Source of the DNA: Thermoplasmata archaeon | GTDB lineage: Archaea; Thermoplasmatota; Thermoplasmata; UBA10834 | Length of the DNA: 64,000 nt | Direction: 5' to 3' | Assembly: GCA_041554135.1 (NCBI GenBank) | Contig: JBFFML010000003.1 | Span: 2,858 to 66,857 of the forward strand | Shown: positions 17,643 through 57,195 of the stretch, piece by piece | Position numbering within the stretch: position 1 is the first letter of the stretch | Layout: each line of letters starts with the position of its first letter | Position numbers and translations under genes: made by a program | The notes under the pieces: model-generated | The model's database searches: none | The model's input: the letters and a program-made list of their open reading frames with translations, nothing else | What the model was told of the DNA's origin: nothing

Positions 17643-19061
17643 ATGGCGAGGAAGATCGTCATCGTAGGCGGCGGCTGTGGTGGGGGGACCGCTGCCCAAT
17701 TTGCCAGGAAGACGGACAGCGGTTCAGAGATAACGATCATAGAGCGCGAGGTGTATCCGCAATACTCGAGGTGCGGCCTGCCCTACGGCATATCCGGCGT
17801 GATCCCAGAGCTCACCAACCTGATCGAGGCTCCGGAGGAGCGCCTGCGCAAGAGCAGAATAAGCGTCCACCTCGGGTCGACAGTGACGAAGGTGGACACC
17901 GAAGGCAAAATCGTCCATGTGTCGAAGCAGGAGGGCGATGAGCTGGAGCTGGAGTACGACTCCCTCGTCCTCGCCACCGGCGCGAAGGCGGTGGTCCCGC
18001 CGATCAAGGGCGCGTTCCGCGAAGGCGGCATGCCTGACGAGCTGAAGGAGGGGGTGTATGTCCTCAGGACGATAGAGGACGCCAGAGGCATCCAGTCCCT
18101 CGCCTCCAAGGGCAAGCGCGCGGTCGTCATCGGAGCCGGCCTCGTTGGCCTAGAGGTTGCGGAGGCGCTGCTGATCCGGGGCTGCAAGGTCACGGTCATC
18201 GAGTACCTCTCGAACTGCATCCTGGCCATGGTCGACGATGACATGGCGCAGATGATGGCGGCCGCGCTCGACAGGGACGGCGTCAAGCTGTTCACGGAGT
18301 ACGAGGCGACGGAGATACTCGGCGAGGAGAAGGCGAACTGCGTGGTGGCCAACGACCGGAAGACCGGCGAGGAGCGCACGTTCTATGCGGATGTCATCGT
18401 GTTCGCCACGGGCCAGCGGGGCGAGACGGACATCGCCAAGAGCATCGGCTGTGCGACGGGCCCGACGAGACAGATCTCGGTCGACGACCGCTGCGAGACG
18501 AGCGTCAAAGGGGTGTTCGCGGTGGGCGACTGCACCGAGTACCCTGAGTTCGTGACGGGCAAGCCGACCGTGAGCGGCCTCGGCACCATCGCGGTCAAGA
18601 TGGCCATGGTCGCCGGCGTCAACGCCGCGGGCGGGGACGAGAGGCTGCCCAAGGGTTTCCTGCAGACGAGGGCCACGGAGCCTTTCGGATGCCAGGTCGC
18701 CGCCGTGGGCCCGACCAGCGCGCAGCTGGAGCAGGCGGGGATGAAGCCGCTGATCGGCAAGGTGCGAGGGTTCACGCTGCCCGACTACTTCCCCGGCAGG
18801 AAGGAGATATACGTCAAGGTGCTCGCCCACCCGGAGGACGGCAGGATCCTCGGGGCGCAGATAGTCGGCGAGTCACGCGTGCACATGAGGATCAACGCCT
18901 ACGCGGCCGCCGTGCAGGCGGGGATGACCGTGCACGACTTCGCCAAGCTCGAGACGGCGTACTGCCCGCCAGCGGCGCCCACGATGGATGTAATCACGAT
19001 CGCCTGCGAGGCCGTGCGCGTGAAGATGAGACGGGCGAAAGCCCCGGCTGGCGGTCGATGA
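17643..19061 (+). CDS. FAD-dependent pyridine nucleotide-disulfide oxidoreductase (NADH oxidase / CoA-disulfide reductase-like)
   Basis: KIVIVGGGCGGGTAA (FAD GxGxxG), the redox-active YSRCGLPYGI, a second Rossmann motif VVIGAGLVGLEVAEA, and a C-terminal dimerisation domain are present. GGGAGG lies 9 nt upstream of the ATG. Confidence 0.8.
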   Translation: MARKIVIVGGGCGGGTAAQFARKTDSGSEITIIEREVYPQYSRCGLPYGISGVIPELTNLIEAPEERLRKSRISVHLGSTVTKVDTEGKIVHVSKQEGDELELEYDSLVLATGAKAVVPPIKGAFREGGMPDELKEGVYVLRTIEDARGIQSLASKGKRAVVIGAGLVGLEVAEALLIRGCKVTVIEYLSNCILAMVDDDMAQMMAAALDRDGVKLFTEYEATEILGEEKANCVVANDRKTGEERTFYADVIVFATGQRGETDIAKSIGCATGPTRQISVDDRCETSVKGVFAVGDCTEYPEFVTGKPTVSGLGTIAVKMAMVAGVNAAGGDERLPKGFLQTRATEPFGCQVAAVGPTSAQLEQAGMKPLIGKVRGFTLPDYFPGRKEIYVKVLAHPEDGRILGAQIVGESRVHMRINAYAAAVQAGMTVHDFAKLETAYCPPAAPTMDVITIACEAVRVKMRRAKAPAGGR

Positions 19062-19107: not shown

Positions 19108-19590
19108 TCAGAACAGTCCCTGGTAGCCGCCGGCGTCTATCTCCTCGATGACCTTCCTGGGGTCCTTGCCATCGACGGTGACGCCCATGGACACGCAGGT
19201 GCCGACGACCTCCCGGAAGCGCCCCCGCTTGTCCTTGGCCAGCATCGAGCCGGCCTTCATCTCGCCTATCTTCGCGACCTGCTGCACCGTGAGGTTGCCG
19301 ACGAAGTCCGAGTTGGGCTTCCCGCTACCCTTCTCGATGCCCAGCTCCTTCATTATGAGCGCGGTCGTGGGCGGGGTGCCGACCTTTATCTCGAACGCCT
19401 TGGTTTTCGAATCCACGATTAGCGTGACGGGCACCTTCATGCCTATGAACGCCTTCGTCTTCTCGTTTATCGCGCCGACCACCTGTATGACGTTCACTCC
19501 GAGCGGTCCCAGGGCGGGACCGAGCGGCGGACCGGGCGTGGCCTTGCCCCCGTCCACAAGAACCTCAAGCTTCTCTGGCATGGAACTCAC
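19108..19590 (-). CDS. rpl11: 50S ribosomal protein L11
   Basis: [32 protein letters not shown]... is the canonical L11 N-terminal domain. Confidence 0.9.
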
Positions 19591-20504
19591 TTCTCCTTCT
19601 CAAGCACTCGCACATGGTCCCCTCTGATCGTCACCGGGATGGGAACCATCGCCTCGAACAACTCCACGGTGATCTCCTCTTTGGCCTCGTCGATCTGCTG
19701 GACCCTGGCCTTCTCGCCCTTGAACGGCCCCGCGATGAGCTCGACGATGTCGCCCTCGACGATGCCGGACACTATCGGTTTGGGGGTCAGGAAGTGCTCG
19801 ATCTCGCCGAAGCTCGTCTCGCCCTTCACCAACCCTCTGGTGCGTCTCACGCCCTTCACGACCTCCCGGAGCGCGTCCGTGTTCATCGCCTCGACGAACA
19901 CGTAGCCGCGTATCGTCGCCGGGGATAGTATCGCGAAAACGCCGATCGGCTTGCCCTTCGCCCTGCTGGCAAGCGAGTCGGCCACCGTCTTCTCGTGGCC
20001 TATCGAGGTCTTGACCGCGAGGATCGATTGCCTCGCGGACGCCTGGAGCGTGGCGACGTCCGACACGTTTGGATCGTCCTTCAGGCTCGCGCTCACGAGG
20101 ACGGTTATCTTGTCCCCGAAGCGCGCGCCGGTGGGCGACGTGATAGTGAGGGTGAATGTCTTCTCCTGCCCGGCCATGATGTCGAATGTGCGCTCGTCCT
20201 CCTGGTCGGCCGAGGGCGTGTTCTCCCAGACCACTCCTAGAGGGTCGAAGAGCTTCACAAACCACTCGGGCGACCCTTCCTCGGTCGCCGAGAAGAGCGT
20301 GTCGACCTTGATCACCACGGTGTGCGGCAGACCGTCCTCGGGTATCCTCAGAACCATGTCGAAGTCCGATGAGTCGCCCGACGCCATGCTGCGTTTTGAC
20401 TCCCCCGTCACCTGGAGCTTGAGCGTCTTGTCCATGGGCTGCGCTGGGGGTGCGCTCTTGTCCCTCTCCTTCTCGACCGGCTCTACGTCATCAAAGATTC
20501 CCAA
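19587..20504 (-). CDS. spt5: transcription elongation factor Spt5 (NusG) with an unexplained 5' extension of about 150 codons
   Basis: The C-terminal about 150 aa ([18 protein letters not shown]...[26 protein letters not shown]... and the KOW motif [19 protein letters not shown]) form a complete NGN+KOW Spt5. The ORF continues upstream without a stop for about 155 aa of non-repetitive, coding-like sequence. Internal GTGs that would give a canonical-length Spt5 exist near 20040-20070. Confidence 0.8.
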
Positions 20505-20550
20505 AACGATCCCTCGTTGAAGCGTTGGACGGAGTTCCCCTCAAGCGGCG

Positions 20551-20790
20551 CTAGCCGAAAGTCCTCACGACTATGTCGGCGCCGTACTCGAAGAGCCAGT
20601 AAATGAGGAAACCCAGGCCGCCCATGAGTATCAGACCTATCGCCACTATCTGGCTGATGCGGAGGTACTCCTCACCGGAGGGCTTCCTGGCCATCTTGAA
20701 CACACGGCCGTACTTGCCCTTGCCGATGTGCTTGGTCTTCTCCTCGATCCTCCTCTGGAGGTCCCAGGATTTCTCAATGATCTCACTCAT
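20551..20790 (-). CDS. secE: protein translocase subunit SecE (Sec61 gamma)
   Basis: The 79-aa protein reads MSEIIEKSWDLQRRIEEKTKHIGKGKYGRVFKMARKPSGEEYLRISQIVAIGLILMGGLGFLIYWLF and has a single C-terminal TM. Its position between ftsZ and spt5 is the conserved archaeal order. Confidence 0.8.
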   Translation of the reverse strand: MSEIIEKSWDLQRRIEEKTKHIGKGKYGRVFKMARKPSGEEYLRISQIVAIGLILMGGLGFLIYWLFEYGADIVVRTFG

Positions 20791-20813: not shown

Positions 20814-21920
20814 CTACTTAATAAAGTCTAGTCCAAGGTCGCGGCCCTTCCTGTCCTTTGTGGGGCCGAATATGTGCTTCGATTTGACGCCGGTGATGAC
20901 CACCATGACGCGGATGGTGTCGACGAGCGTCTCGTCCACGGCGGCGCCCCAGATGATCCTCGCGTTGTCGTTTATCTTCGCCTGGATTATCTCGGCCACC
21001 TCCTCGGCCTCCTTGACGCTCATGTCGGGGCCCCCGGTCACGTTGACCAGCGCCGCCGTCGCCTCGCTTATGTCGAGCTCTATCAAGGGCGAGTTGATGG
21101 CCTCCGTCACGGCCGTGACGGCCCTGTCGTCGTCGTCGGCCTCTCCCAGACCTATCATGGCGACGCCGCCGGACTTCATGACTGTCTTTATGTCGTTGAA
21201 GTCGAGGTTCACGAGCCCGGGCTTCGTGACTATCTCCGTAATGCCTTTGATGGCTCTCATCAGCACCTCGTCGGCCACCTTGAAGGCGGCGTTGAGGGAC
21301 AGCTTGGGTACGAGGTCTATGAGCCTGTCGTTCGGTATCACGATGACGGTGTCGGCGACGCCCCTGAGCCTGTCCAGACCCCAGTCGGCGTTCTCTGCCC
21401 GGATGACGCCCTCCGCCTTGAACGGATAGGTGCATATCGCTATCGTCAGCGCGCCGAGCTCCTTCGCGATCTGCGCGACGAACGGCGCGGAGCCCGTGCC
21501 TGTGCCTCCGCCGAGCCCGCACGTTATGAACACGACGTCGGAGTCCTTCATGGCGGCCTTCAGCTCTTCCTCCGCCTCCCTGGCGGCCTCCTCGCCCACC
21601 TGCGGCAACGCGCCCGCGCCCAACCCACGAGTGACGCGCTTGCCGAGCAGTATCTTGTGCGGCGCCCTCGTCATGAGCAGATGCTGTGCGTCGGTGTTCG
21701 CCGCGTAGAGCTCAGCACCTATGATGCCGGCCTCGGCCAGGCGGTTTACCGTGTTGCAGCCTCCACCGCCGCAGCCGACTATCTTTATGTTGGTCCTGAG
21801 GTTCTGCAGTATCCTCTGCAGCTCCTCGTCCTCGGCGGTGAATGCCCGCATATCCTCGGGCAACTTCTTCTTGTGCTCCTCCTCCACGTCGGACAGGGCA
21901 CTCTCGATGAGCGATTTCAT
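20814..21920 (-). CDS. ftsZ: cell division GTPase FtsZ (FtsZ1-type), tandem copy A
   Basis: [18 protein letters not shown], the tubulin signature [12 protein letters not shown], a T7 loop NLDFND and a C-terminal tail are present. The ATG is at 21920 (MKSLIESAL). Confidence 0.9.
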
Positions 21921-22012
21921 GTTCGACCTCCATCGTGCGTGAACCGTCAACTAGATGACAAAGCCAGGGGCCGGTCGAGCCCACGGGCTTTTTGACCGTA
22001 GCCGATTAGTTG

Positions 22013-22044: not shown

Positions 22045-23166
22045 TCAGTGCACTTCGTCCAGCTCGCCAGCGCCCTTGAAGCGCTTGTCGCTGGGCTTCC
22101 CGAGGATCTGCTTCGACTTCACGCCCGTGGCCACGAGCATCACCTTGATCGTCTTGTCGAGCGCTGGATCGACGGCCGCGCCCCATATTATCCGGGCGTT
22201 GGGTCCGACTCTGGACTGTATCTCCTCCGCGGCCCTCTCGGCCTCTGCGATGGTCATGTCCGTGCCGCCTATGACGTCGACGAGCACGCCGTTCGCCTCG
22301 CTTATGTCCACCTCGAGCAGCGGCGAGTTGATGGCCTGGTCGATGGCCTCCTGTATCCTCTCCTCTCCGGGCGCGTCGGACTCGCCAAGCCCCATCATGG
22401 CGACGCCCGCGCCTTTCATCACGGTCTTGACGTCGTTGAAGTCCAGGTTGACTAGCCCCGGTCTGGTGATGACCTCGGTGAGGCCCTTGATGGACCTCAT
22501 GAGCACCTCGTCCGCGACCTTGAACGCGGCGTTGAGCGACAGCCTCGGCACGAGGTCGAGCAGCTTGTCGTTGGGGATGACGATGACGGTGTCGGAGGCG
22601 TCCCTGAGCCTGTCGAGACCCCACTCGGCGTTCTCCATCCTCATGCGCCCCTCGCCCCTGAACGGCACAGTCGCGATGGATATCGTGAGCGCGCCCATCT
22701 CCTTGGCCATACGCGCAACGACCGGTGCTCCGCCCGTTCCAGTGCCTCCGCCGAGCCCGCATGTGATGAAGCATATGTGCGTGTCCGCGAGGATCTTCTT
22801 AAGGTCGTCCTCGGCCTCCCTGGCCGCTTCCTCGCCGACCTGCGGCAGCGCGCCCGCGCCCAAGCCTCTGGTGACCCTCCTGCCAAGGAGTATCTTGTGC
22901 GGTACCCTCAGGACCAACAGGTGCTGCGCGTCGGTGTTGGCGGCGAATATCTCCGCGCCGACCACGCCCTCGTCGTATACACGAGCGATCGTGTTGGTTC
23001 CGGCTCCTCCGACTCCGATGATCTTGATGTTCGTCTTGAGGCTGCGGAGTATCTGCTCGAGCTCGGCGTCGACCCGCTGGTCCTGAAACACTCCGACGTC
23101 GCTCTCTCCACCGGTTCCCATCGTAGGCTCTCGTGCAAGCGCATCTTCGACTAGCGATCTCATCAT
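22045..23166 (-). CDS. ftsZ: cell division GTPase FtsZ (FtsZ1-type), tandem copy B
   Basis: The same signature motifs are present ([18 protein letters not shown]). It is about 70% identical in protein to copy A, with long identical stretches such as [23 protein letters not shown]. Confidence 0.9.
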   Translation of the reverse strand: MMRSLVEDALAREPTMGTGGESDVGVFQDQRVDAELEQILRSLKTNIKIIGVGGAGTNTIARVYDEGVVGAEIFAANTDAQHLLVLRVPHKILLGRRVTRGLGAGALPQVGEEAAREAEDDLKKILADTHICFITCGLGGGTGTGGAPVVARMAKEMGALTISIATVPFRGEGRMRMENAEWGLDRLRDASDTVIVIPNDKLLDLVPRLSLNAAFKVADEVLMRSIKGLTEVITRPGLVNLDFNDVKTVMKGAGVAMMGLGESDAPGEERIQEAIDQAINSPLLEVDISEANGVLVDVIGGTDMTIAEAERAAEEIQSRVGPNARIIWGAAVDPALDKTIKVMLVATGVKSKQILGKPSDKRFKGAGELDEVH

Positions 23167-40124: not shown

Positions 40125-43100
40125 ATGAGAGAGCTTGTCGAGACTTACTTCAGGGAGCGGAGCATAGTCAACCACCACATCGCGTCGTACAACGACTTCC
40201 TCCCAACGCTTGATCATCCCAACAGCAGGATGCAGAAGATCGTGGACAACGTCAGGGCGTCCCCTGACGAGGCCTATCGCGGCGTGATACGTCTGGACCC
40301 CGACAGGACCGAGGGCAAGATGATAGAGATACGCCTCGGGAGGAAGAGGGACGAGAAGACCGGCCAGATCGACGCCAACGCGAGGCCGACCATCTCCGTC
40401 GGCCGGCCCATCATCAAGGAGGCCAACGGCGCGACGCACTCGCTCTTCCCAATGGAGGCGAGGCTGAGGAACCTCAACTACTCCGCGCCCATCTCCCTCG
40501 AGTTCACCGTGCTGGAGGACGGCATCGAGCGCGAGCCCGAGAAAGTGCACATCGGGGACCTGCCGGTGATGGTCAAGTCGAAGAAGTGCAACCTCCACAA
40601 GGACAACATCGACATCGACCGCGAGCCGACTGACGCGGAGATGGAAAAGTTCCTCGCATCGATGGGCGAGGACCTGTGCGACCCAGGCGGGTATTTCGTC
40701 ATAGGCGGGACGGAGCGCGCCCTGATATCGCTCGAGGACCTGGCTCCCAACAGGGTGATGGTCGAACTCAACGAGAGGTACGGCACGAGCCTCCATGTCG
40801 CGAAGGTGTTCTCCCAGAGGGAGGGCTACCGCGCGCTCACGCTGATGGAGAAGAAGAAGGACGGCGTCCTCGTCGTGTCCGTGCCCGCGGCGTCCGGACA
40901 GATACCTCTGATGGTGCTGATGAAGGCGCTCGGCATGGAGAGCGACGAGGAGATCTACAAGTCGATAGTCTCCGACCCTCAGATGGCGAACATCGTGTAC
41001 GCCAACATCGAGGAGTGCCAGAACAAGAAGCTGTATCCGCCGAACGGCATATTCACGACAGAGGACGCGATACTCTACCTCGAGCGCAAGTTCGCCACGG
41101 GCCAGGCGAAGGAGTACAGGGCGAAGAAGGTCGAGAGCATAATCGACAGATCGCTTCTGCCTCACCTAGGCGACACGTCCGACGTGCGTCTGAAGAAGTC
41201 GATATTCCTTGGCAGGGTCGCGAGGACGATCCTGGAGATGGAGCTCGGCAAGAGGAAGGAGGACGACAAGGACCATTACGCCAACAAGCGTCTGAAGCTC
41301 GCGGGGGACCTGATGGAGGACCTGTTCCGCGTCGCGCTCACGAACCTCATTAAGGATCTCAAGTACCAACTCGAGAGGGGCTACACACGGAAGAAGGGCC
41401 TGAGGATATCGTCGGCAATCAGGCCGGACCTGCTGACGCACAGGCTGCTCCACGCGTTCGCCACCGGCAACTGGGTCGGAGGAAGGGCGGGTGTGTCACA
41501 GCTTCTCGACAGGACATCGAACATGAGCGCCCTGTCGCACCTGAGACGCGTGACGTCGCCGCTGACGCGGAGCCAGCCGCACTTCGAGGCGAGGGACCTG
41601 CATCCCACCCAGTGGGGGAGGCTCTGTCCCAACGAGACGCCGGAAGGTCAGAACTGTGGCCTGGTGAAGAACTGCGCCCTCATTGTGGACGTGTCGGAGG
41701 GGACCGACGAGAAGGAGATCATCTGGCTCCTGCGGGACCTCGGCGTCAGGGAGGTCAGCGAACATCAGACCACGGAGACGAGGGTATACACGAACGGGGA
41801 CCTGATCGGCCTGCACGACAAGCCGCGCGAACTCGTGGAGGAGATACGCCAGAGGCGCCGGTCGGGCCTGCTATCGTCGGAAGTCAACATACGGTTCGAC
41901 CTCAACATGAACGAGATCATAATCAACTGCGACGAGGGGAGGCTGAGGCGGCCGCTGCTCGTCGTGAGGAACGGCAAGACGCTGCTCACCCGGAGGCATC
42001 TCGAGGACATGCACTCGGCGAAGGCCAGATGGTCGGAGCTGATACGGGAGGGCGTCGTCGAGTGGGTGGATGCTGAGGAGGAGGAGGATTCCTACATCGC
42101 GGTGTCCGCGTTCGAGACTCCCGAGAGCTGCGAGCACTGCGGCAAGATACTGTCCGAGATCGACGTCGACTGGCGGAACCCCGGCGAGGGCGGGAAGGTC
42201 GTGCTCGAGTGCAAGTCGTGCGGCGGCACGAGCCAGGTCGATTCGCTCCTGACGGAGGACCACACGCATCTGGAGATAGACTCCATGGTCATACTTGGCG
42301 TCTGCTCCGCGGTGGTCCCGTATCCGGAGCATAATTCGAGCCCGAGGGTCACGATGGGCTCGGGCATGGCCAAGCAGTCGCTCGGCCTCAGCTCGTCCAA
42401 CTTCAGGATCCGGCCGGACACGAGGAGCCACATACTCCACTATCCGCAGAAGCCGCTCGTGACGACGAAGCCCATGGAGTTCGTCAGCTTCGACAAGAGG
42501 CCCGCGGGTCAGAACTTCGTCGTGGCGATACTCTCGTACCAGGGGTACAACATGGAGGACGCGGTCATCATGAACAAATCGTCGGTCGAGCGCGCGCTCG
42601 GCAGGTCGACGTTCATGAGGACTTACAGGGCGGAGGAGCGCAGATACCCAGGAGGGCAGGAGGACCATTTCGAGATCCCGAGCCCGGATGTCAGGGGCGC
42701 CCGCGCGGACCTCTCGTACAGCAACCTGGGCGAGGACGGCCTGATCAGTCCCGAGACCCTGGTCGAGGGCGGCGACGTGCTCATAGGCAAGACATCGCCT
42801 CCGAGGTTCCTGGAGGAGGAGGCCGACTTCCTCACGCCTCAGAAGAGGCGGGAGACGTCGGTCACCGTCCGTCCAGGGGAGAAGGGCTGGGTCGACAGCG
42901 TGATGCTCACGGAGTCCGAGAACGGCTCACGCCTCGTGAAGGTCAAGGTCAGGGACGAGCGGACGCCGGAGCTGGGCGACAAGTTCGCGTCGAGGCACGG
43001 GCAGAAGGGCGTCGTCGGACTGCTGGTCGACCAGCATGACATGCCGTTCACTGAGGACGGCGTCGTGCCGGACCTGCTGATCAACCCGCACGCCGTGCCG

Positions 43101-43711
43101 TCGAGGATGACCGTCGCGCACGTGCTCGAGATGATCGGCGGCAAGGTCGGCTCGATGGAGGGGCGCGTGATCGACGGCACATCCTTCAGCGGGGAGCGCG
43201 AGGAGGCCCTCAGGGACGCCCTCGTCAAGAACGGGTTCAAGCACAACGGCAAGGAGGTCCTGTACGACGGCATAACCGGCAGGATGATCGAGGCCGAGGT
43301 GTTCATCGGCGTGATATACTACCAGAAGCTGCACCACATGGTCTCTGGGAAGCTGCACGTGAGGAGCCGAGGCCCCGTGCAGATACTCACGAGGCAGCCG
43401 ACGGAGGGTCGCTCGAGGCAGGGCGGCCTGAGGTTCGGCGAGATGGAGAGGGACTGCCTGATAGGCCACGGGGCGGCGATGGTCATACGCGACAGGCTCC
43501 TGGACGAGTCCGACGGGACGCTGCAGTACGTCTGCGGCAACCCGAGCTGCGGGCACATAGCGATCCTGGACAGACGAGGGTCGTTCAGGTGTCCCGTCTG
43601 CGGCAACAACTCGAAGATATACCAGGTGCAGACGTCGTACGCGTTCAAGCTCCTGCTGGACGAGCTCCTGTCGCTTGGGGTCGTCATGCGCCTTCAACTG
43701 GAGGACCTGAA

Positions 43712-43715
<4 letters not shown>
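40125..43715 (+). CDS. rpoB: DNA-directed RNA polymerase subunit B (unsplit, 1196 aa)
   Basis: Rpb2 homology runs along the full length ([13 protein letters not shown], ...[24 protein letters not shown]..., C-terminal Zn ribbon CGNPSCGH...CPVCGN). It is a single ORF, not split into B'/B''. An extra CxxC...CxxC module lies at about aa 660-705 (CEHCGK...CKSCGG). Confidence 0.95.
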
Positions 43716-48222
<4,507 letters not shown>

Positions 48223-50595: not shown

Positions 50596-53500
50596 GTGGA
50601 AGTATCGTTGGCTGAGACAAGGGATGATCCTCCTAGGCCTCTTCTGTCCGGGCTTTTCCGCAGGGGTGGAGGACCTAACGAGTTCATGAAGTGGCTCGGG
50701 GCGAACTGGGCGCCATTGGCCATGCTCATATTCATATTCCTACTCGCGCTGTTCGTGCGCTCGTTCTTCGCCTTCGAGATCAGCGCCGACAACGACTACA
50801 TCGTCTCCGGCGGGTCCGACTCGTACTACTGGCGCAGGATCATCGACTATCATGTTGACACGGGCGATTCCATGTACTGGGACTCGCTGATCAACTTCCC
50901 GATTGGCATCAGGAACCCGAGGCCGCCACTCTACAGCATGTCCGTCGCGGTGCCGGCCGTGGCGGTGTCGGACCTGTTCGAGAGCATGAGCGACGCCGTC
51001 GGGTTCATGTTCGTGTGGTCGACGGCCTTCTGGGGCGCGCTGACCGTCATCCCGGTCTACTTCCTGGGGAAGGAGACGTTCGGCAGACGGGCGGGCCTGG
51101 TAGCGGCCTTCCTGCTGGCGCTTATGCCCAGCCACGTCCAGAGAAGCGTGCTGTCCAACGCGGACCACGACGCGTTCATCCTGTTCTTCATAGTCCTGAC
51201 CTTCTACTTCATGCTGAAGGCCGTGACGGAGCAACGTCATGATAGATGGGTGGGCAGTTGGAAGAGCCGGTCGAGTATCTCGGCTGGGCTCTCAACTTAC
51301 TTCTCCGATAGCAGGACGGCCATCCTGTACGCCCTCATGGCAGGGATGTCCTTCGGCTGCGTCATCATGGCCTGGGTCGGCTTCGCCTACGTGGCCGTGC
51401 TCATGCTCGCCTATCTGCTGGTGCAGGTACTGATCAACAAGTTCAAGAACATCGACTCTACGAGCGTAACGATGCTCGTGCTCATCACGATGGGTTTCGG
51501 CTACCTGCTGGCGTTCCCGGTGTACTACGAGCAGTCGCTTATCGCGACCAGGTTCGATGTCCCCGTCTACCTCTTCGCCGGGGCGATACTCGTCGCGGCG
51601 TTGTTCGTCATCACGAGGGACTATCCATGGACGATCACCCTGCCGGCGATCGTCGGTACGCTGGTCGTCGGCGTCCTCGCGATAAGCGCGTTCTACCCCG
51701 CGCTCGGAGAGGCCATAATGACGGGCCAGGGATACTTCGTGCAGAGCAAGCTATACTCCACCATCGCGGAGGCGCGCGCGCCTGAGTTCAGCGAGTTGGC
51801 GATGGCCTTCGGCATGGTCACGTTCTTCGTGTCGCTCATAGGCCTCATCTACGCCGTGACGAGGATACCCAAGCAGACGTCTGCAGGGTCGACATTCATG
51901 ATCGTCTGGCTCGCGGCGGCCATATTCATGGCGATATCCGCTGGCAGGTTCATGTTCAACGCCGCGCCCGCTTTCGCAATCGCGGCCGGCTGGGTCCTCG
52001 TGATCATGGTCGACAAGATAGACTTCGCTGGCGTCGTGAAGTCGATGAAAGGCGCCAGCGGCTCGTTCCTGCAGGTGTTCAGGAAGAGCGTGAAGATACG
52101 CCATGTGACCGCGGCGCTGTTCCTGGCGTTCTTCATCGTGGTGCCGAACGTGTGGTTCAGCGTGGACGCGGGCATACCGGCGGAGACCAAGCGGGAGTAC
52201 GACAAGCAGATATACAACAGCTTCCCCGAGTTCATGAGACCCGCGGGCTACGACACCCACAACGGTTCGAACTGGTATCTCGGCGCCTTCGGTTTCTCGT
52301 TGCCGTTGCCCTCGCAGTACTATCCCGCGGCATGGGACTGGTTCTCGGAGCAGGATTCCGACATCTACCCCGAGACGACACGTCCGGCATACGTCGCCTG
52401 GTGGGACTACGGTTTCGAGGCGGTCGAGGAAGGCGACCATCCGACCGTCGCAGACAACTTCCAGAACGGGTACCAGGTGGCCGGTAACATCATAATGGCC
52501 CAGGGCGAGGACGACGCGATCGCGCTGTTCTCCCTGAGGCTAATGCAGCATGTCTACGTCACCGACGAGGACATGAAGGAGCGCATAGTCGCTTTGTTGG
52601 AGAAGCACGGGGTCGCGAGCGACGACATCGACTACACATTCACGGGCCCCGCGCAGGAGATCATAGACGCCGTGCTCGACGACCCTGAGAAGTACGGACC
52701 CATGGCCAGCGATATGAGCGCGACGAACGCCAGGCTGGTGTACGGTCGGGAGGTGCTATCGAGCATAGGCCTTGAGCCGTTGGTCGCTTTCTACGACGAG
52801 CTCTGCGAGCTCCTCAGCTGGGAGATACGATACTTCAATGTCGACTCCAGGATGTTCCCCTCGTCCGCCACCAACCCGGGGATATTCTACGCCCCGGCCA
52901 AGTTGGCGGACAGGCGTATACTCGGAGGGTCCATCCCGGTGGACTTCTTCGAGATCAAAGCGGTCACCGACCAGGGCCAGACAATCGCCCTCGAGGACGT
53001 GACGAGCAACATGAGGATAGTCGATTACTCGATAGAGTACAAGGACATGTTCTACGACAGCCTGTTCTACAGCGCCATGTGCGGCTTCAGCGGCGACGAC
53101 ATCGGCCTGGAGAAGAAGGGACTCCCGGGAATGAGCGGCACGGTCTCCACGCAGGAACCGATGCCCGGCTGGAACATGACGCATTTCAAGCTGGTCTACA
53201 GGACGAGCTATTACAACCCGTACCCAGCCGACCTCGTGCCGTTCCACCAGGACGCGTGGAGGGCCGTCAGCTACGACGAGGCCCAGGAGCTCGCGAAGGA
53301 GATACGCGCCGGCGACATCGAAGGCGTGATCGACCAGAGTGCGAGGTCGCTGTACATGAGCGGCACGGTCTTCCTGAAGTACTATCACGGAGCCTACCTG
53401 AACGGTACGGTCACGACCGAGGATGGCAAGGTCGTCGCGGGAGCGCGCGTCACCATACAGGACGAGTACGGCATACCGCACGACACGTGTCTGACGGACG

Positions 53501-56500
53501 ACGACGGCGCCTACTCGCTCCTCGCCCCGTTCGGCAACCTGTCGCTCGTCATCTCGTCTGGCGACGCCGCGCTCAACACGAGGCTTGAGGGAAGCACGGT
53601 CATCGCGGAGTTCGATGTCGACGTCACGGACGACCAGTCGATGAGGGTGAGGCAGGACCTCGACCTCGACGGCGTGTACGATTACATCATCACCAAGGAT
53701 TGCACGGTTGGCAGCGGGGAGGTCATGGGGGACGTGTTCTGGGACCTCAACTTCGACGGCGAGTATTCGCTGACAGACGACGACCTCATACCCGAGGGGA
53801 CGGTCTACTTCGAGAACAAGGTGAGCGGGGAGGAGGCATCAGTCGAGTTCTCGGAGGGTTTCTACACCGTCCCACTGCCGCCAGGTCAGTACAGGGTGTA
53901 CGCTAACGTGCTCGGCACGGAACTTACGATGTCGCTCCAGGAGAACGTGACCTCGGGCAAGAAGAGCGAGGTCAACCTGGCCGTGAAGCCGGCCATGCTC
54001 AAGGGCAACGTCACGACTGCCGACGGCGTCCCCGTCGCCGGCATGGAGCTCGCGCTCAGGAACGCCTTCTTCGACACCGAGTTCACGGCCGTGACGAACG
54101 CGACGGGCGCATACATCTTCTCGAAGGTCATAGGCGGCAAGTACACCCTGTCGACCGAGGATCCGGAACTCATCGTCTTCAACGCGTTGATATCGCTCGA
54201 TGTGGAGTCCGTCGAGGAGAGGGATGTCACCGTGTTCGAGAGGCGGAGCGTGAAGTTCAGGGTGTCTCTCGACGGCGTCCCGGTGCCTTACGCGCCCTAC
54301 ACGATCCACAACATGTACTATCCGAACGAGTACATCTCCGGCGTGACGGACAGATATGGGTGGGTCAAGGCCGACCTGTCGAAGGGGTACTGGTCCATAT
54401 ACTCCGTGTACAGCGACGGCGCCGAAGACTACGCCGGGTACGTCGGATTGGACCTCTACTACGAGGATAGCGCGGCGGGCACCATCGCGCTCGAGCCGGC
54501 CTTCACCGTCGAGGGCAGCCCGAGGTTGTCCGGACCGTACGGGCTCATCAGGGACACGTTCGTCGTGTTCGTCGCCGAGGATGGCGCGAGACTGTTCTTC
54601 AGGACCGACAACCTGGGCAACTTCGACACCCGTCTCCCAGAGGGGACCTACGATGTGCTCTGCTGGGCCGTGTCGGGGTCGAGCGTGCTCTCGGAGACGT
54701 TGACGGTCGATGAGGACCTCACAGGCCTTAGGCTGTACGCAGAGGGCAGCGTGATCGTCACCGGAAGCGTCTGGCTCGACGAGGACAGTTCGGGGTCGAG
54801 GGGAGCTTCCGAGCTCGGCGCCTTCGCGTTGCTCGAGGTCACCGACGCCTATGGCAGGACATACGCGACGAGGGCGGACCACGGGGGCGACTACAGGTTC
54901 CTCGTGGTCAAGGGCATGAGGGTCACATTCACAGTCGCCGACCCGGGCTACTCCGGATGGAGCATGAGCGCCCTGTACGGCAACGAGGCGAAGAACGTCA
55001 CGCTGTTCGCGACACCGGACGATGTGGTCGTCTCTGGGTGCGTCATACACGACGGCGCAGGCGTGAGGGGCGTCGAGGTGGCGTTCCTGCCGGACACGAT
55101 AGCCAAGGAGGCGATATACGTGGTGACGGGCACCGGGGGTTACTACACCGCGCATGTGCCTCCGGGCGACTACACCATCCTCGTCGACGATGACGTGGGC
55201 GTCATCGGGGGCGAGGTACTGCAGTTCGAGGCCGAAGAGACCATCGAGCCGACCGGCGAGGTCGTGCTTTACGACATCTATCCCGCGCGCAGGGTCCAGA
55301 TCTCCGGCAACGTGCTCGGAGCGGCGGAGGTGACGGAGGTCAGGATGGACGGCCCGGAGGAGGTCGTCGTCGACATCGACGGGTTCACATACAGCGCATG
55401 CGTCATCCCAGGTACATATCACATATACGCCTCAGGAATGACGGACGACACCGTGCTGGCGGGCGTGCTCAAGGTCTATGTCCAGGCAGGCGCGACACAG
55501 TTCGACGTGTACCTGGACGAGGCACGCGAAGTGTCGGGCGTGGTGTACATCGACTCCGCCCCGGCGACGAGCGCCGTCGCCATCTCCGTGTTCACGGAGG
55601 ACGGCGCCAAGGTCGCGGCTGTGACGTCTGTGACGGGCGCGTTCAGCCTTCACCTCCCGTCCGGCAGCTACGCGTTCACCTACAGCCTCGAGTCCACCAG
55701 CGTCGAGGACGGCCGGACGCTGTACGTGGAGTACGTCTCATCCGAGATGGTCAGCGTCGCCTCGTCGAACGTCACTCTGAGCCCGCACCTGGAAATGCGG
55801 CTCGACAACACGACGCTCACGGGAACGGTCACCGACGCCGACGGTGCGCCTGTCCAGGCGCAGATACAGCTCACCCCCAACACTCGGTATGGGCTCGCGG
55901 CGACTTTCTACACCGACGCCTCGGGTGACTTCGAGGCGTGGATACAGCCGGGAGACTATACCGTGTACGTCAAGCGGTCGCAGGATGCCAGCGTGTCGCT
56001 CGGCTTCGTCGGGATATCGAGGAACGAGGCCAAGGACCACGATGTGCAGGTGTCCGAGGGGAGGTTCCTGTCCGGTAGGATCACGGCCGGCGGATACCCC
56101 GTCGCCGGCTCGTTGACGGTCTCGTCGGGCGACGCCTCGCTGAGTGTCTCGAGCGACGCCGACGGCTACTTCAGGTCGCTGCTGCCGCAGGGCTCCTACG
56201 TCGTCTCGTCGAGCACGCAGAGGACGGAAGGCGGGATGACCATCCGGTACTCGCTCACGACGACCGTGGACCTGGGGTCGTTCGACCGCTATGTCAACCT
56301 CAAGCTCAACAGGGAGAACACTCGGTCTGTGACGGCCAGCTGGAACGCCTCCCTGGCGCTGCCGGCGGGCGTCGGCCAGACCGTCACCTATGTGTTCGTC
56401 GTGGAGAACACGGGCAACGTGGGGGACGACTTCGAATGCCGGTTCATGGGCACCGGGTTCGACGTGACCTTCGTGCCTGAGAGCCAGTTCATAGATTTCG

Positions 56501-57195
56501 GGACGAACGGGAACACCGCCACCTTCGTCGCCCAGGTGACGGTCCTCGAGGACGCTGTCGCTGGCGACACCCCTGTCCCGATCCAGATGCGGTCCGAGAC
56601 GTCGTCGAGCGCACGGGCAGACCTGGAGCTCATCGTCAAGGTGCCGCCCGTGTATTCCACGGAGGTGACGACGGTAGATGAGGAGGGGGCGTCGGTCGTC
56701 GGCGACACGACGAGGACGCTCATACATGTGATTAACACCGGCAACACGCAGGCCGAGTACGATCTGGCCATAACGAACCTCGAGTACCTCGTGAGCCGCG
56801 GTTGGAGCGCGCGGGCGATGCTCACGGGCTCCGGGGAGGAGGTCGGTGTCATGAATATAGAGTACCAGGGTCACAGGGAGATATACATCGAGTTCACGTC
56901 CATCAGGAGTGACCCCGACCCGAAGGCGGAGGCGACGGTCCTCGTGTGGTCCGTCGCGGACCCAGGGCAGACCACGGTCGCCTCGATACCCATCATCCTC
57001 CCGGACATCAGCATCGGCCCCGGAGGCCTGGATGTCGTTCGGGACGACTTGACATACGAGTACGATCCATCCGACCTGTACATCAACATCGGCCTGGTCT
57101 GCGCAATCGGCGCCCTGGTCGCCATGTTCGTGTTGCTCAGGCGGAGGAAGGGCCTCGGCGGCCTCAGGAAGAAGGGCAAGGGTGATAAGCGATGA
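50596..57195 (+). CDS. aglB: oligosaccharyltransferase AglB/STT3 fused to a C-terminal region of about 1300 aa carrying S-layer-like beta-sandwich repeats and a membrane anchor (2199-aa ORF; probable start ATG 50686)
   Basis: The N-terminal 13-TM core has the EL1 acidic motif region and WWDYGFEAVEEGDHP (WWDYG) at about aa 600. From about aa 900 onward there are at least 8 carboxypeptidase-regulatory-like repeats (GTVTTEDGKVVAGARVTIQDEYG..., GNVTTADGVPVAGMELALRN..., GTVTDADGAPVQAQIQL..., GRITAGGYPVAGSLTVSS...). CARDB/DUF11-like units follow (VTYVFVVENTGNVGDDF, IHVINTGNTQAEYDLAI), ending in a TM helix plus RRRKGLGGLRKKGKGDKR. The ORF is continuous. Confidence 0.85.
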   Translation: MEVSLAETRDDPPRPLLSGLFRRGGGPNEFMKWLGANWAPLAMLIFIFLLALFVRSFFAFEISADNDYIVSGGSDSYYWRRIIDYHVDTGDSMYWDSLINFPIGIRNPRPPLYSMSVAVPAVAVSDLFESMSDAVGFMFVWSTAFWGALTVIPVYFLGKETFGRRAGLVAAFLLALMPSHVQRSVLSNADHDAFILFFIVLTFYFMLKAVTEQRHDRWVGSWKSRSSISAGLSTYFSDSRTAILYALMAGMSFGCVIMAWVGFAYVAVLMLAYLLVQVLINKFKNIDSTSVTMLVLITMGFGYLLAFPVYYEQSLIATRFDVPVYLFAGAILVAALFVITRDYPWTITLPAIVGTLVVGVLAISAFYPALGEAIMTGQGYFVQSKLYSTIAEARAPEFSELAMAFGMVTFFVSLIGLIYAVTRIPKQTSAGSTFMIVWLAAAIFMAISAGRFMFNAAPAFAIAAGWVLVIMVDKIDFAGVVKSMKGASGSFLQVFRKSVKIRHVTAALFLAFFIVVPNVWFSVDAGIPAETKREYDKQIYNSFPEFMRPAGYDTHNGSNWYLGAFGFSLPLPSQYYPAAWDWFSEQDSDIYPETTRPAYVAWWDYGFEAVEEGDHPTVADNFQNGYQVAGNIIMAQGEDDAIALFSLRLMQHVYVTDEDMKERIVALLEKHGVASDDIDYTFTGPAQEIIDAVLDDPEKYGPMASDMSATNARLVYGREVLSSIGLEPLVAFYDELCELLSWEIRYFNVDSRMFPSSATNPGIFYAPAKLADRRILGGSIPVDFFEIKAVTDQGQTIALEDVTSNMRIVDYSIEYKDMFYDSLFYSAMCGFSGDDIGLEKKGLPGMSGTVSTQEPMPGWNMTHFKLVYRTSYYNPYPADLVPFHQDAWRAVSYDEAQELAKEIRAGDIEGVIDQSARSLYMSGTVFLKYYHGAYLNGTVTTEDGKVVAGARVTIQDEYGIPHDTCLTDDDGAYSLLAPFGNLSLVISSGDAALNTRLEGSTVIAEFDVDVTDDQSMRVRQDLDLDGVYDYIITKDCTVGSGEVMGDVFWDLNFDGEYSLTDDDLIPEGTVYFENKVSGEEASVEFSEGFYTVPLPPGQYRVYANVLGTELTMSLQENVTSGKKSEVNLAVKPAMLKGNVTTADGVPVAGMELALRNAFFDTEFTAVTNATGAYIFSKVIGGKYTLSTEDPELIVFNALISLDVESVEERDVTVFERRSVKFRVSLDGVPVPYAPYTIHNMYYPNEYISGVTDRYGWVKADLSKGYWSIYSVYSDGAEDYAGYVGLDLYYEDSAAGTIALEPAFTVEGSPRLSGPYGLIRDTFVVFVAEDGARLFFRTDNLGNFDTRLPEGTYDVLCWAVSGSSVLSETLTVDEDLTGLRLYAEGSVIVTGSVWLDEDSSGSRGASELGAFALLEVTDAYGRTYATRADHGGDYRFLVVKGMRVTFTVADPGYSGWSMSALYGNEAKNVTLFATPDDVVVSGCVIHDGAGVRGVEVAFLPDTIAKEAIYVVTGTGGYYTAHVPPGDYTILVDDDVGVIGGEVLQFEAEETIEPTGEVVLYDIYPARRVQISGNVLGAAEVTEVRMDGPEEVVVDIDGFTYSACVIPGTYHIYASGMTDDTVLAGVLKVYVQAGATQFDVYLDEAREVSGVVYIDSAPATSAVAISVFTEDGAKVAAVTSVTGAFSLHLPSGSYAFTYSLESTSVEDGRTLYVEYVSSEMVSVASSNVTLSPHLEMRLDNTTLTGTVTDADGAPVQAQIQLTPNTRYGLAATFYTDASGDFEAWIQPGDYTVYVKRSQDASVSLGFVGISRNEAKDHDVQVSEGRFLSGRITAGGYPVAGSLTVSSGDASLSVSSDADGYFRSLLPQGSYVVSSSTQRTEGGMTIRYSLTTTVDLGSFDRYVNLKLNRENTRSVTASWNASLALPAGVGQTVTYVFVVENTGNVGDDFECRFMGTGFDVTFVPESQFIDFGTNGNTATFVAQVTVLEDAVAGDTPVPIQMRSETSSSARADLELIVKVPPVYSTEVTTVDEEGASVVGDTTRTLIHVINTGNTQAEYDLAITNLEYLVSRGWSARAMLTGSGEEVGVMNIEYQGHREIYIEFTSIRSDPDPKAEATVLVWSVADPGQTTVASIPIILPDISIGPGGLDVVRDDLTYEYDPSDLYINIGLVCAIGALVAMFVLLRRRKGLGGLRKKGKGDKR

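Follow-up and report, generated by a model that had tools for sequence, protein, structure and literature searches.

An immunoglobulin-like module added to Spt5 in one clade of Thermoplasmata

We have studied a stretch of 64,000 nucleotides (nt) from a Thermoplasmata archaeon (contig JBFFML010000003.1), which we will call the window. It contains a gene for the transcription factor Spt5, the archaeal NusG, with an uninterrupted open reading frame (ORF) of 305 codons in positions 19587-20504 of the minus strand. The C-terminal part of the protein is a complete canonical Spt5. The first 160 codons form an extension, which we demonstrate to be real, translated, selected, monophyletic and specific to Spt5, and folded according to AlphaFold2 prediction. 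A single Spt5 polypeptide of 305 amino acids (aa) with an N-terminal module is almost certainly the right architecture. When the role that we propose for the module is included, our explanation as a whole is still probable. The parts of the gene are the following:

20509..20515, minus strand: Shine-Dalgarno-like element GAGGGAT, 4-10 nt upstream of the TTG, as read from the sequence
20502..20504, minus strand: TTG with which the long Spt5 starts; no other start-type codon lies between it and the upstream stop
20424..20504, minus strand: N-terminal tail, aa 1-27, with the motif MG[LIV]F[DE] followed by a K/E/P-rich linker, predicted to be disordered
20031..20423, minus strand: acidic beta-sandwich, predicted to be immunoglobulin (Ig)-like, aa 28-158, with ten strands in the AlphaFold2 model
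20019..20036, minus strand: junction SARQSI, aa 157-162, from the last predicted Ig strand to strand 1 of the NGN domain, with R158 and Q159 nearly invariant
19788..20024, minus strand: NGN domain, aa 161-239 (PF03439, E 1.4e-16; also TIGR00405)
19590..19757, minus strand: KOW domain and C-terminus, aa 250-305 (PF00467 in aa 250-281, E 1.1e-8)
19587-19589, minus strand: stop codon TGA

A complete Spt5 and its conserved extension

The preliminary description of this gene, made by a model from the sequence alone, reported an ORF without any in-frame stop which ends in a complete NGN and KOW. Both statements are right, and the two peptide strings which it quoted are present in the ORF. The NCBIfam equivalog of Spt5, TIGR00405, matches aa 163-305 with positions 2-144 of its 145 (181.3 bits, cut-off 69.95), and the solved archaeal Spt5 chains have 138-147 aa; therefore the C-terminal 145 aa are a canonical Spt5 of full length. 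In a Foldseek search with the full-length model these chains are 44-51% identical to the C-terminal half of the protein, and the NGN of M. jannaschii Spt5 is matched with a TM score of 0.8 normalised to the target. The Pfam cut-offs are exceeded by both PF03439 and PF00467. The NGN aligns contiguously with positions 2-84 of PF03439, and the extra domain lies entirely before it. The KOW and C-terminal region is almost invariant in an alignment of close relatives.

Archaeal Spt5 has been described as a minimal form with an NGN and one KOW, whereas an acidic N-terminus, extra KOWs and a C-terminal repeat region (CTR) are attributed to eukaryotic Spt5 (PMC7819879; PMC13289920). The window protein shares with the canonical archaeal ones (TIGR00405; P. 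furiosus 3p8b_B, T. kodakarensis 9bct_G, M. jannaschii 4zn3_A) an orthodox NGN and KOW and the secE-spt5-L11 (rpl11) neighbourhood. It departs from their format, two domains in about 145-155 aa with nothing before the NGN, by the 160 aa which precede its NGN: a tail of 27 aa and a domain of 130 aa, predicted to be folded. In open-access papers and bioRxiv we have found no description of an archaeal Spt5 with a folded N-terminal domain.

The decisive evidence for the extension is its conservation, rather than the low probability of finding 160 open codons by chance (about 1%, our own estimate from a rate of about 0.029 stop codons per codon in random sequence with 62% GC). A collection of 5.8 billion proteins gave 2408 matches. 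The best 120 of them have 303-326 aa, 76-100% identity and 91-100% coverage of the query, 100% in most, so that the full-length architecture is present in at least 120 database proteins. The alignment of 20 close relatives has invariant blocks within the extension and a conserved ATLQA-ARQS segment which leads into the NGN. Scanning one genome for each GTDB species, we detected 80 loci: 67 of them have the fused form, with 43-89% identity (68 if the frameshifted L073 is included). The same uninterrupted ORF recurs in assemblies of independent origin (NCBI, ENA, JGI, Logan), and the peptide is conserved down to about 24% identity.

The extension is also under purifying selection. Pairwise Nei-Gojobori comparisons in 12 relatives give a ratio of nonsynonymous to synonymous rates (dN/dS) of 0.11-0.34 in the extension and 0.01-0.08 in the core; dS is near saturation in most pairs, so the values are approximate, but their direction is clear. 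Third codon positions have a GC content of 0.85 for the extension, 0.89 for the Spt5 core and 0.84-0.86 for secE, L11 and ftsZ. The extension is GC-rich and typical of the genome in this respect, as first described, although the length given then, about 150-155 codons, was somewhat short. The preliminary description hesitated between an Spt5 with an extra N-terminal domain and a small upstream gene which had lost its stop: the fused proteins and species genomes, together with purifying selection, support the former. It had also considered non-coding drift, which is not borne out, as the extension is conserved across lineages.

The domain does not belong to any known family at the usual thresholds. 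Residues 1-160 have no match above the curated thresholds of Pfam or NCBIfam (the best is NPCBM_assoc, 14.7 bits for a threshold of 24.4), and a profile of the N-domain has none among PDB sequences at E values up to 10. An exhaustive HMMER search with aa 1-160 alone in 1.84 billion cluster representatives gave 30 matches. Those which cover the whole length (24-37% identity; 66% in P0121) carry an NGN and/or a KOW, or else are short fragments at contig ends. The exception is P0122 (276 aa), an enoyl-CoA hydratase followed by a stretch of 52 residues of the domain (75% identity, E 7e-17), which looks like a chimeric assembly or gene call. The remaining matches are weak and correspond to Ig-like repeats of large surface proteins (NEW3/FixG_C/Ig_VWA7 or PKD/Big_9). 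Profile searches of the 5.8-billion-protein index with two alignments of the N-domain (A2 and A5) gave 12 and 16 matches, nearly all of them annotated as Spt5/NusG or fragments, plus P0122. No complete standalone copy of the domain appears in the 1.84 billion representatives or in the profile searches of the 5.8-billion-protein index, and a hidden Markov model (HMM) search finds no paralogue within the window. Another protein, P0124 (406 aa), is an Ig-bearing Spt5 with an inserted segment similar to ribosomal protein L1; it also looks like a chimeric assembly or gene call.

Fold, distribution and origin of the module

The tail and the domain differ in their predicted structure. Residues 1-23 have a predicted local distance difference test (pLDDT) below 50 in both AlphaFold2 models, yet the motif MG[LIV]F[DE] is kept across lineages whose domains are only 24-35% identical. 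In residues 2-11 the peptide is conserved while its codons vary synonymously; therefore the constraint acts on the peptide. No other ORF in the window starts with MG[LIV][FL][DE].

For the domain the preliminary description had guessed a small beta-sandwich, and AlphaFold2 predicts with confidence an all-beta sandwich; HMM searches and structure prediction together give an Ig-like fold and no family above threshold. The mean pLDDT is 77 for the full protein and 82 for aa 1-162 modelled alone, with a predicted template modelling score (pTM) of 0.73. It reaches about 90 over most of aa 31-160 and falls to 75-84 in blocks 71-80 and 91-110. In the full model a strand in 148-157 is followed after two residues by the NGN strand 160-166. 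Residues R158 and Q159 are retained in at least 90% of divergent members, and we take the junction between the predicted sandwich and the NGN to be rigid.

Foldseek searches of the PDB with the model found only generic Ig-like or E-set sandwiches, with E values from 4e-6 to 1e-3 and query-normalised TM scores of 0.29-0.58: the N-terminal domain of GH123, the ASH/PapD-like domain of CEP192, complement MG domains, pilins and the CARDB domain of PF1109. The CARDB matches (3idu and 2kl6) have E values of about 1e-3 and TM scores of 0.36-0.53. Of 19 family members, 12 have sub-threshold matches with NPCBM_assoc (NEW3) at E below 0.05 (best E 9e-6), and three match FixG_C (best E 1.5e-6). The best relative, P0130, falls just below the thresholds: 24.7 bits for 25.6 in FixG_C and 23.6 for 24.4 in NPCBM_assoc. 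The predicted beta-sandwich fold is common to NEW3 (NPCBM_assoc, PF10633), FixG_C (PF11614) and CARDB (PF07705), which also share with the window domain a C-terminal motif, G-x-x-K-x-F-T-L-x-I-x-x-P-x-G-A-x-x-G-D. However, these families typically occur in glycosidases and in proteins of the surface or other extracytoplasmic places, often in tandem; the window domain is a single copy on a cytoplasmic transcription factor. Because the Pfam gathering thresholds are not reached, we describe it as resembling these families without being a member: going by the model, it is a very diverged Ig fold of the NEW3/FixG_C/CARDB type.

The module is acidic. The isoelectric point (pI) of the Spt5 core is 7.05, whereas the domain has 4.39 and aa 1-160 as a whole have 4.38. 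The domain has 22 D/E and 12 K/R, with a net charge of about -10, and some relatives carry N-terminal tails of poly-Glu. In one sub-lineage (L067, L068 and P0129, the latter with 363 aa) about 50 residues are inserted within the Ig-like domain, between the strand which contains the W and the motif P-x-G-A-R-Y-G-D. This insertion looks helical and charged (KNHQEVKTRKEFIDRQVKELVDKGQPVPDDLAKERDSLVEKFREAEEG).

All 80 loci come from Thermoplasmata, Thermoplasmatota or 'Methanomassiliicoccales' metagenome-assembled genomes (MAGs), found in sediment, mud, groundwater and soil. The closest ones include the MAGs UBA10834 (L006, 87% identity) and UBA9653 (L024), both of which belong to the uncultured order UBA10834 of the class Thermoplasmata (Zinke et al., bioRxiv 10.1101/2020.03.09.984617). 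An affiliation with Marine Group II was considered and discarded, since these MAGs indicate the order UBA10834. The Ig-bearing Spt5s form one clade, apart from lineages with other N-termini and from the canonical Thermoplasmatales, in a neighbour-joining tree built from the NGN-KOW core, which is unbootstrapped and indicative only. Six sequences labelled noIg in this tree carry a PRNPRYGS variant which was missed by our regular expression; they align fully over the domain. A Thermoplasmatales genome (L079) has the order ftsZ-secE-spt5-L11 with an Spt5 of 147 aa and a spacer of 18 nt between secE and spt5. Nothing is found between these two genes, and therefore there was no ancestral intervening gene to fuse with. 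The simplest reading is that the module was acquired once, by a single lineage of Thermoplasmata.

Other lineages of Thermoplasmata (L072-L078 and L080-L083) have different N-terminal extensions in Spt5, of about 50-255 aa and low complexity. Most of them are acidic or charged and look disordered by their composition. The Spt5 of L072, with 403 aa, includes a long stretch of EEKP-type repeats; that of L081 would be near-canonical if an internal Met were its start. Elaboration of the N-terminus of Spt5 seems to be common in this class.

Start of translation and neighbouring genes

The preliminary description had the long ORF start with ATG. The start codon is TTG, and the first in-frame ATG is codon 24, which is not conserved. 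At the homologous position in 61 loci we find TTG in 43, GTG in 13, ATG in three and CTG in two. Most of these loci have GAGGGAT or GAGGGGT at the same distance; more distant lineages have TAGGAGGTG. The window sequence in this region is cgaGGGATcgttTTG. Non-ATG initiation is thus nearly universal for this essential gene across the 61 loci and goes together with a well-conserved Shine-Dalgarno-like element. Both features may serve for translational control of the level of Spt5.

In some public annotation the extra domain is hidden, because the true TTG or GTG start was missed. NCBI gives the Spt5 of L005 (CP070732.1; UCE92489.1) and L037 (JACZKW010000050.1; P0184) as proteins of 196 aa which start with an internal Met. 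These gene calls, for which an internal ATG was chosen, begin inside the predicted beta-sandwich. Public databases label these proteins plainly as Spt5 or NusG.

Internal GTG codons had been taken in the preliminary description as the only candidates for a canonical start. They are present near the NGN boundary, at codons 137 and 147, but in only 25 of 68 relatives could translation start at the position of codon 147, and no internal start codon is conserved. A different possibility is that two isoforms are made, the long protein and a canonical Spt5 of about 145 aa from codon 161, so that the extension marks a sub-population. Codon 161, the canonical start position, is ATG in 21 of the 68 relatives and GTG in eight (29 start-capable); in many of them the codon AGG of Arg158 creates a GAGG 7 nt upstream, and AGR codons make up 80% at Arg158 versus 52% of the Arg codons elsewhere in the gene. 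Against this, codon 161 is ATC in the window and ATC, ATA, ATT, GTC or CTC in 39 relatives. Met, Ile and Val are all suited to a buried residue of a beta-strand, Thermoplasmatales have Ile in this position, and AGA, which gives no GAGG, is common at Arg158. We consider two isoforms rather improbable as a general explanation. A short canonical form may exist in some species with ATG at codon 161; it is unlikely in this genome. We have also considered whether the conserved ARQS junction reflects an internal Shine-Dalgarno element and do not find this convincing: Arg158 is no more than modestly enriched in AGR codons.

It is hardly credible that the first 160 codons are an untranslated or incidentally open leader, with the true start at the GTG of codon 147 or at an ATG in codon 110. 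The 196-aa versions in NCBI records correspond to the choice of codon 110, and a weak AAGGA lies 13-17 nt upstream of the GTG in codon 147. However, selection acts over aa 2-160 and the peptide is conserved with synonymous variation even in the most divergent members. A Shine-Dalgarno-like element is conserved ahead of the TTG, only a minority of the relatives could start at codon 147, and translation from codon 110 would split the predicted beta-sandwich down the middle. An accident, either a small gene between secE and spt5 which lost its stop or an assembly or frameshift error which joined two ORFs, would agree with the lack of a recognised family and with the small chance of an open frame, but it is effectively refuted by the independent assemblies and 67 species-level genomes with the same ORF, the nearly invariant R158 and Q159, the absence of a standalone domain among 1.84 billion representatives (the short matches are fragments at contig ends), the Thermoplasmatales without a gene between secE and spt5, and the fact that no relative has a separate ORF ending in a stop.

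The genes on both sides of spt5 are:

20551..20790, minus strand: secE (PF00584), which ends 46 nt upstream of the spt5 start, as first described
19108..19590, minus strand: ribosomal protein L11 gene (PF03946 and PF00298), the downstream neighbour

The order secE-spt5 is the same in L002, L003 and L079. The GTG start of L11 and the TGA stop of spt5 overlap as GTGA; an alternative start of L11 is an ATG 9 nt further. A scan for sigma-70 promoters and intrinsic terminators around spt5, which is not designed for archaea, gave nothing. Directly upstream of secE-spt5 there are two tandem ftsZ paralogues (window 20814-21950 and 22045-23166, minus strand). On the opposite strand, between L11 and the L1-L10-L12 genes, a gene for a pyridine-nucleotide-disulfide oxidoreductase of 472 aa (window 17643-19061, plus strand) breaks up the usual cluster of ribosomal proteins.

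Other genes of the transcription machinery in the window also have additions. Rpo2 (40125-43715, plus strand) has 1196 aa versus 1123 aa in T. kodakarensis, with about 36 extra residues near its N-terminus (aa 27-89; window 40203-40391) and an insertion of about 44 aa in 664-708 (window 42114-42248), which has two CxxC pairs and looks like a zinc ribbon. Rpo1C (A''; 46470-47948, plus strand) has 492 aa, with an N-terminal extension of about 110 aa. In this lineage-specific addition there is a lysine-rich linker, together with a helix-hairpin-helix match below the threshold (HHH_5, E 1.6e-3). Beta-sandwiches are also found in an ORF of 2199 aa (50596-57195, plus strand), which has an N-terminus of the STT3/AglB-type oligosaccharyltransferases and multiple CarboxypepD_reg-like repeats.

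Possible role of the module on the elongation complex

In our explanation a single polypeptide of 305 aa would be translated from the TTG behind the Shine-Dalgarno-like element. It would consist of a canonical Spt5 and a module with three parts: the MG[LIV]F[DE] peptide, a charged linker, disordered and about 20 residues long, and the acidic Ig-like sandwich. The last strand of the sandwich would join strand 1 of the NGN through ARQ and hold the sandwich rigidly against the NGN, which would dock in the canonical way on the tip of the clamp coiled-coil of RNA polymerase (RNAP). The Rpo1N of the window aligns with that of T. kodakarensis through the clamp coiled-coil with no insertion, so the docking should be canonical. 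The window Spt5 may bind Spt4 and the RNAP clamp coiled-coil and stimulate elongation; the canonical coiled-coil and the highly conserved NGN are indirect evidence for this. In the elongation complex of P. furiosus, His12 of Spt5 contacts upstream DNA (PMC11162788). By its position in the sequence it probably corresponds to H170 here, which is found ten residues past the junction and is invariant among 20 close relatives. With a rigid attachment to strand 1 of the NGN, and with this residue near upstream DNA, we expect the sandwich to point outwards on the upstream-DNA face of the elongation complex. Its acidic charge makes a platform for protein docking likelier than a binder of DNA or RNA. 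The N-terminal peptide would then be a tethered second contact, which recruits or positions a lineage-specific partner on the elongating RNAP. We propose this docking role tentatively, as a possibility which is considerably less secure than the architecture itself.

Several points weigh against our explanation. The docking platform is suggested by geometry and charge. The rigid junction depends on the continuity of secondary structure and on sequence conservation, and the N-terminal peptide makes no confident contact in the AlphaFold2 models (pLDDT about 40). PEW and P-x-G-A-x-Y-G-D, the motifs which are best conserved in the sandwich, are presumably structural, as in domains of the NEW3/CARDB type, and not a binding site. 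The ATG at codon 161 in 21 relatives, often with GAGG before it, and the saturation of dS must be added to this list.

Two other roles appear unlikely to a similar degree. The module might be the archaeal counterpart of the acidic N-terminus of eukaryotic Spt5, a platform on the upstream face which handles chromatin proteins or recruits a co-transcriptional factor; it may dock on the lineage-specific additions of Rpo2 or Rpo1C. This possibility takes into account the repeated N-terminal elaboration of Spt5 in Thermoplasmata outside Thermoplasmatales, either as disordered acidic tails or as the Ig-like module. The N-terminal acidic region of eukaryotic Spt5 is disordered and linked to histone handling. 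The window segment is mostly a folded sandwich according to the model, with disorder predicted only in aa 1-27. An acidic segment right before the NGN is found in eukaryotic Spt5 (PMC7819879) and also in the window, as aa 1-160, but we have no evidence of homology or of an interaction with chromatin. There is no histone gene in the 64-kb window, which is uninformative at that size. In the second role the Ig-like domain would be an intramolecular regulator, packed on the NGN or KOW and masking a surface for RNAP or a partner until its release. The rigid conserved junction would place it beside the NGN, and autoinhibition has been documented in the NusG of T. maritima; however, there it takes place between NGN and KOW (PMC7819879), and one would expect constitutive activity of an essential housekeeping factor.

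Much less probable is a domain that binds nucleic acid, either upstream DNA or nascent RNA. Domain II of Aquifex NusG has been described as Ig-like. The NusGs of Aquifex aeolicus (1m1g/1npp) and Thermotoga maritima (2xhc) likewise have a lineage-specific globular domain beside the NGN, linked to non-specific binding of nucleic acids, and the N-terminus of the NGN is near upstream DNA. However, the bacterial domains are large, positively charged and inserted in a loop of the NGN (PMC2995049), while the window domain is archaeal, N-terminal and acidic, and some of its relatives have poly-Glu tails. We detected no sequence similarity between the window domain and these extra domains. Actinobacterial NusG also has a lineage-specific N-terminal extension, of unknown function, but it is described as disordered (bioRxiv 10.1101/2022.10.21.513233), whereas that of the window is predicted to be mostly folded. 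No Spt5 or NusG studied so far is known to have an Ig-like domain in the N-terminal position seen here.

The acidic N-terminus of eukaryotic Spt5 and the domains inserted in some bacterial NusGs are natural terms of comparison for the module. Among transcription factors, only Spt5/NusG is conserved in all domains of life. A large clade of Archaea stably carries on this essential factor an extra domain, predicted to be folded, and a conserved N-terminal peptide; therefore archaeal elongation complexes vary more than had been assumed. The module gives a well-defined starting point in the search for a lineage-specific partner of the elongating RNAP. A universal transcription factor thus has a genuine and ancient variant, found throughout a clade, whose added module is predicted to be Ig-like.

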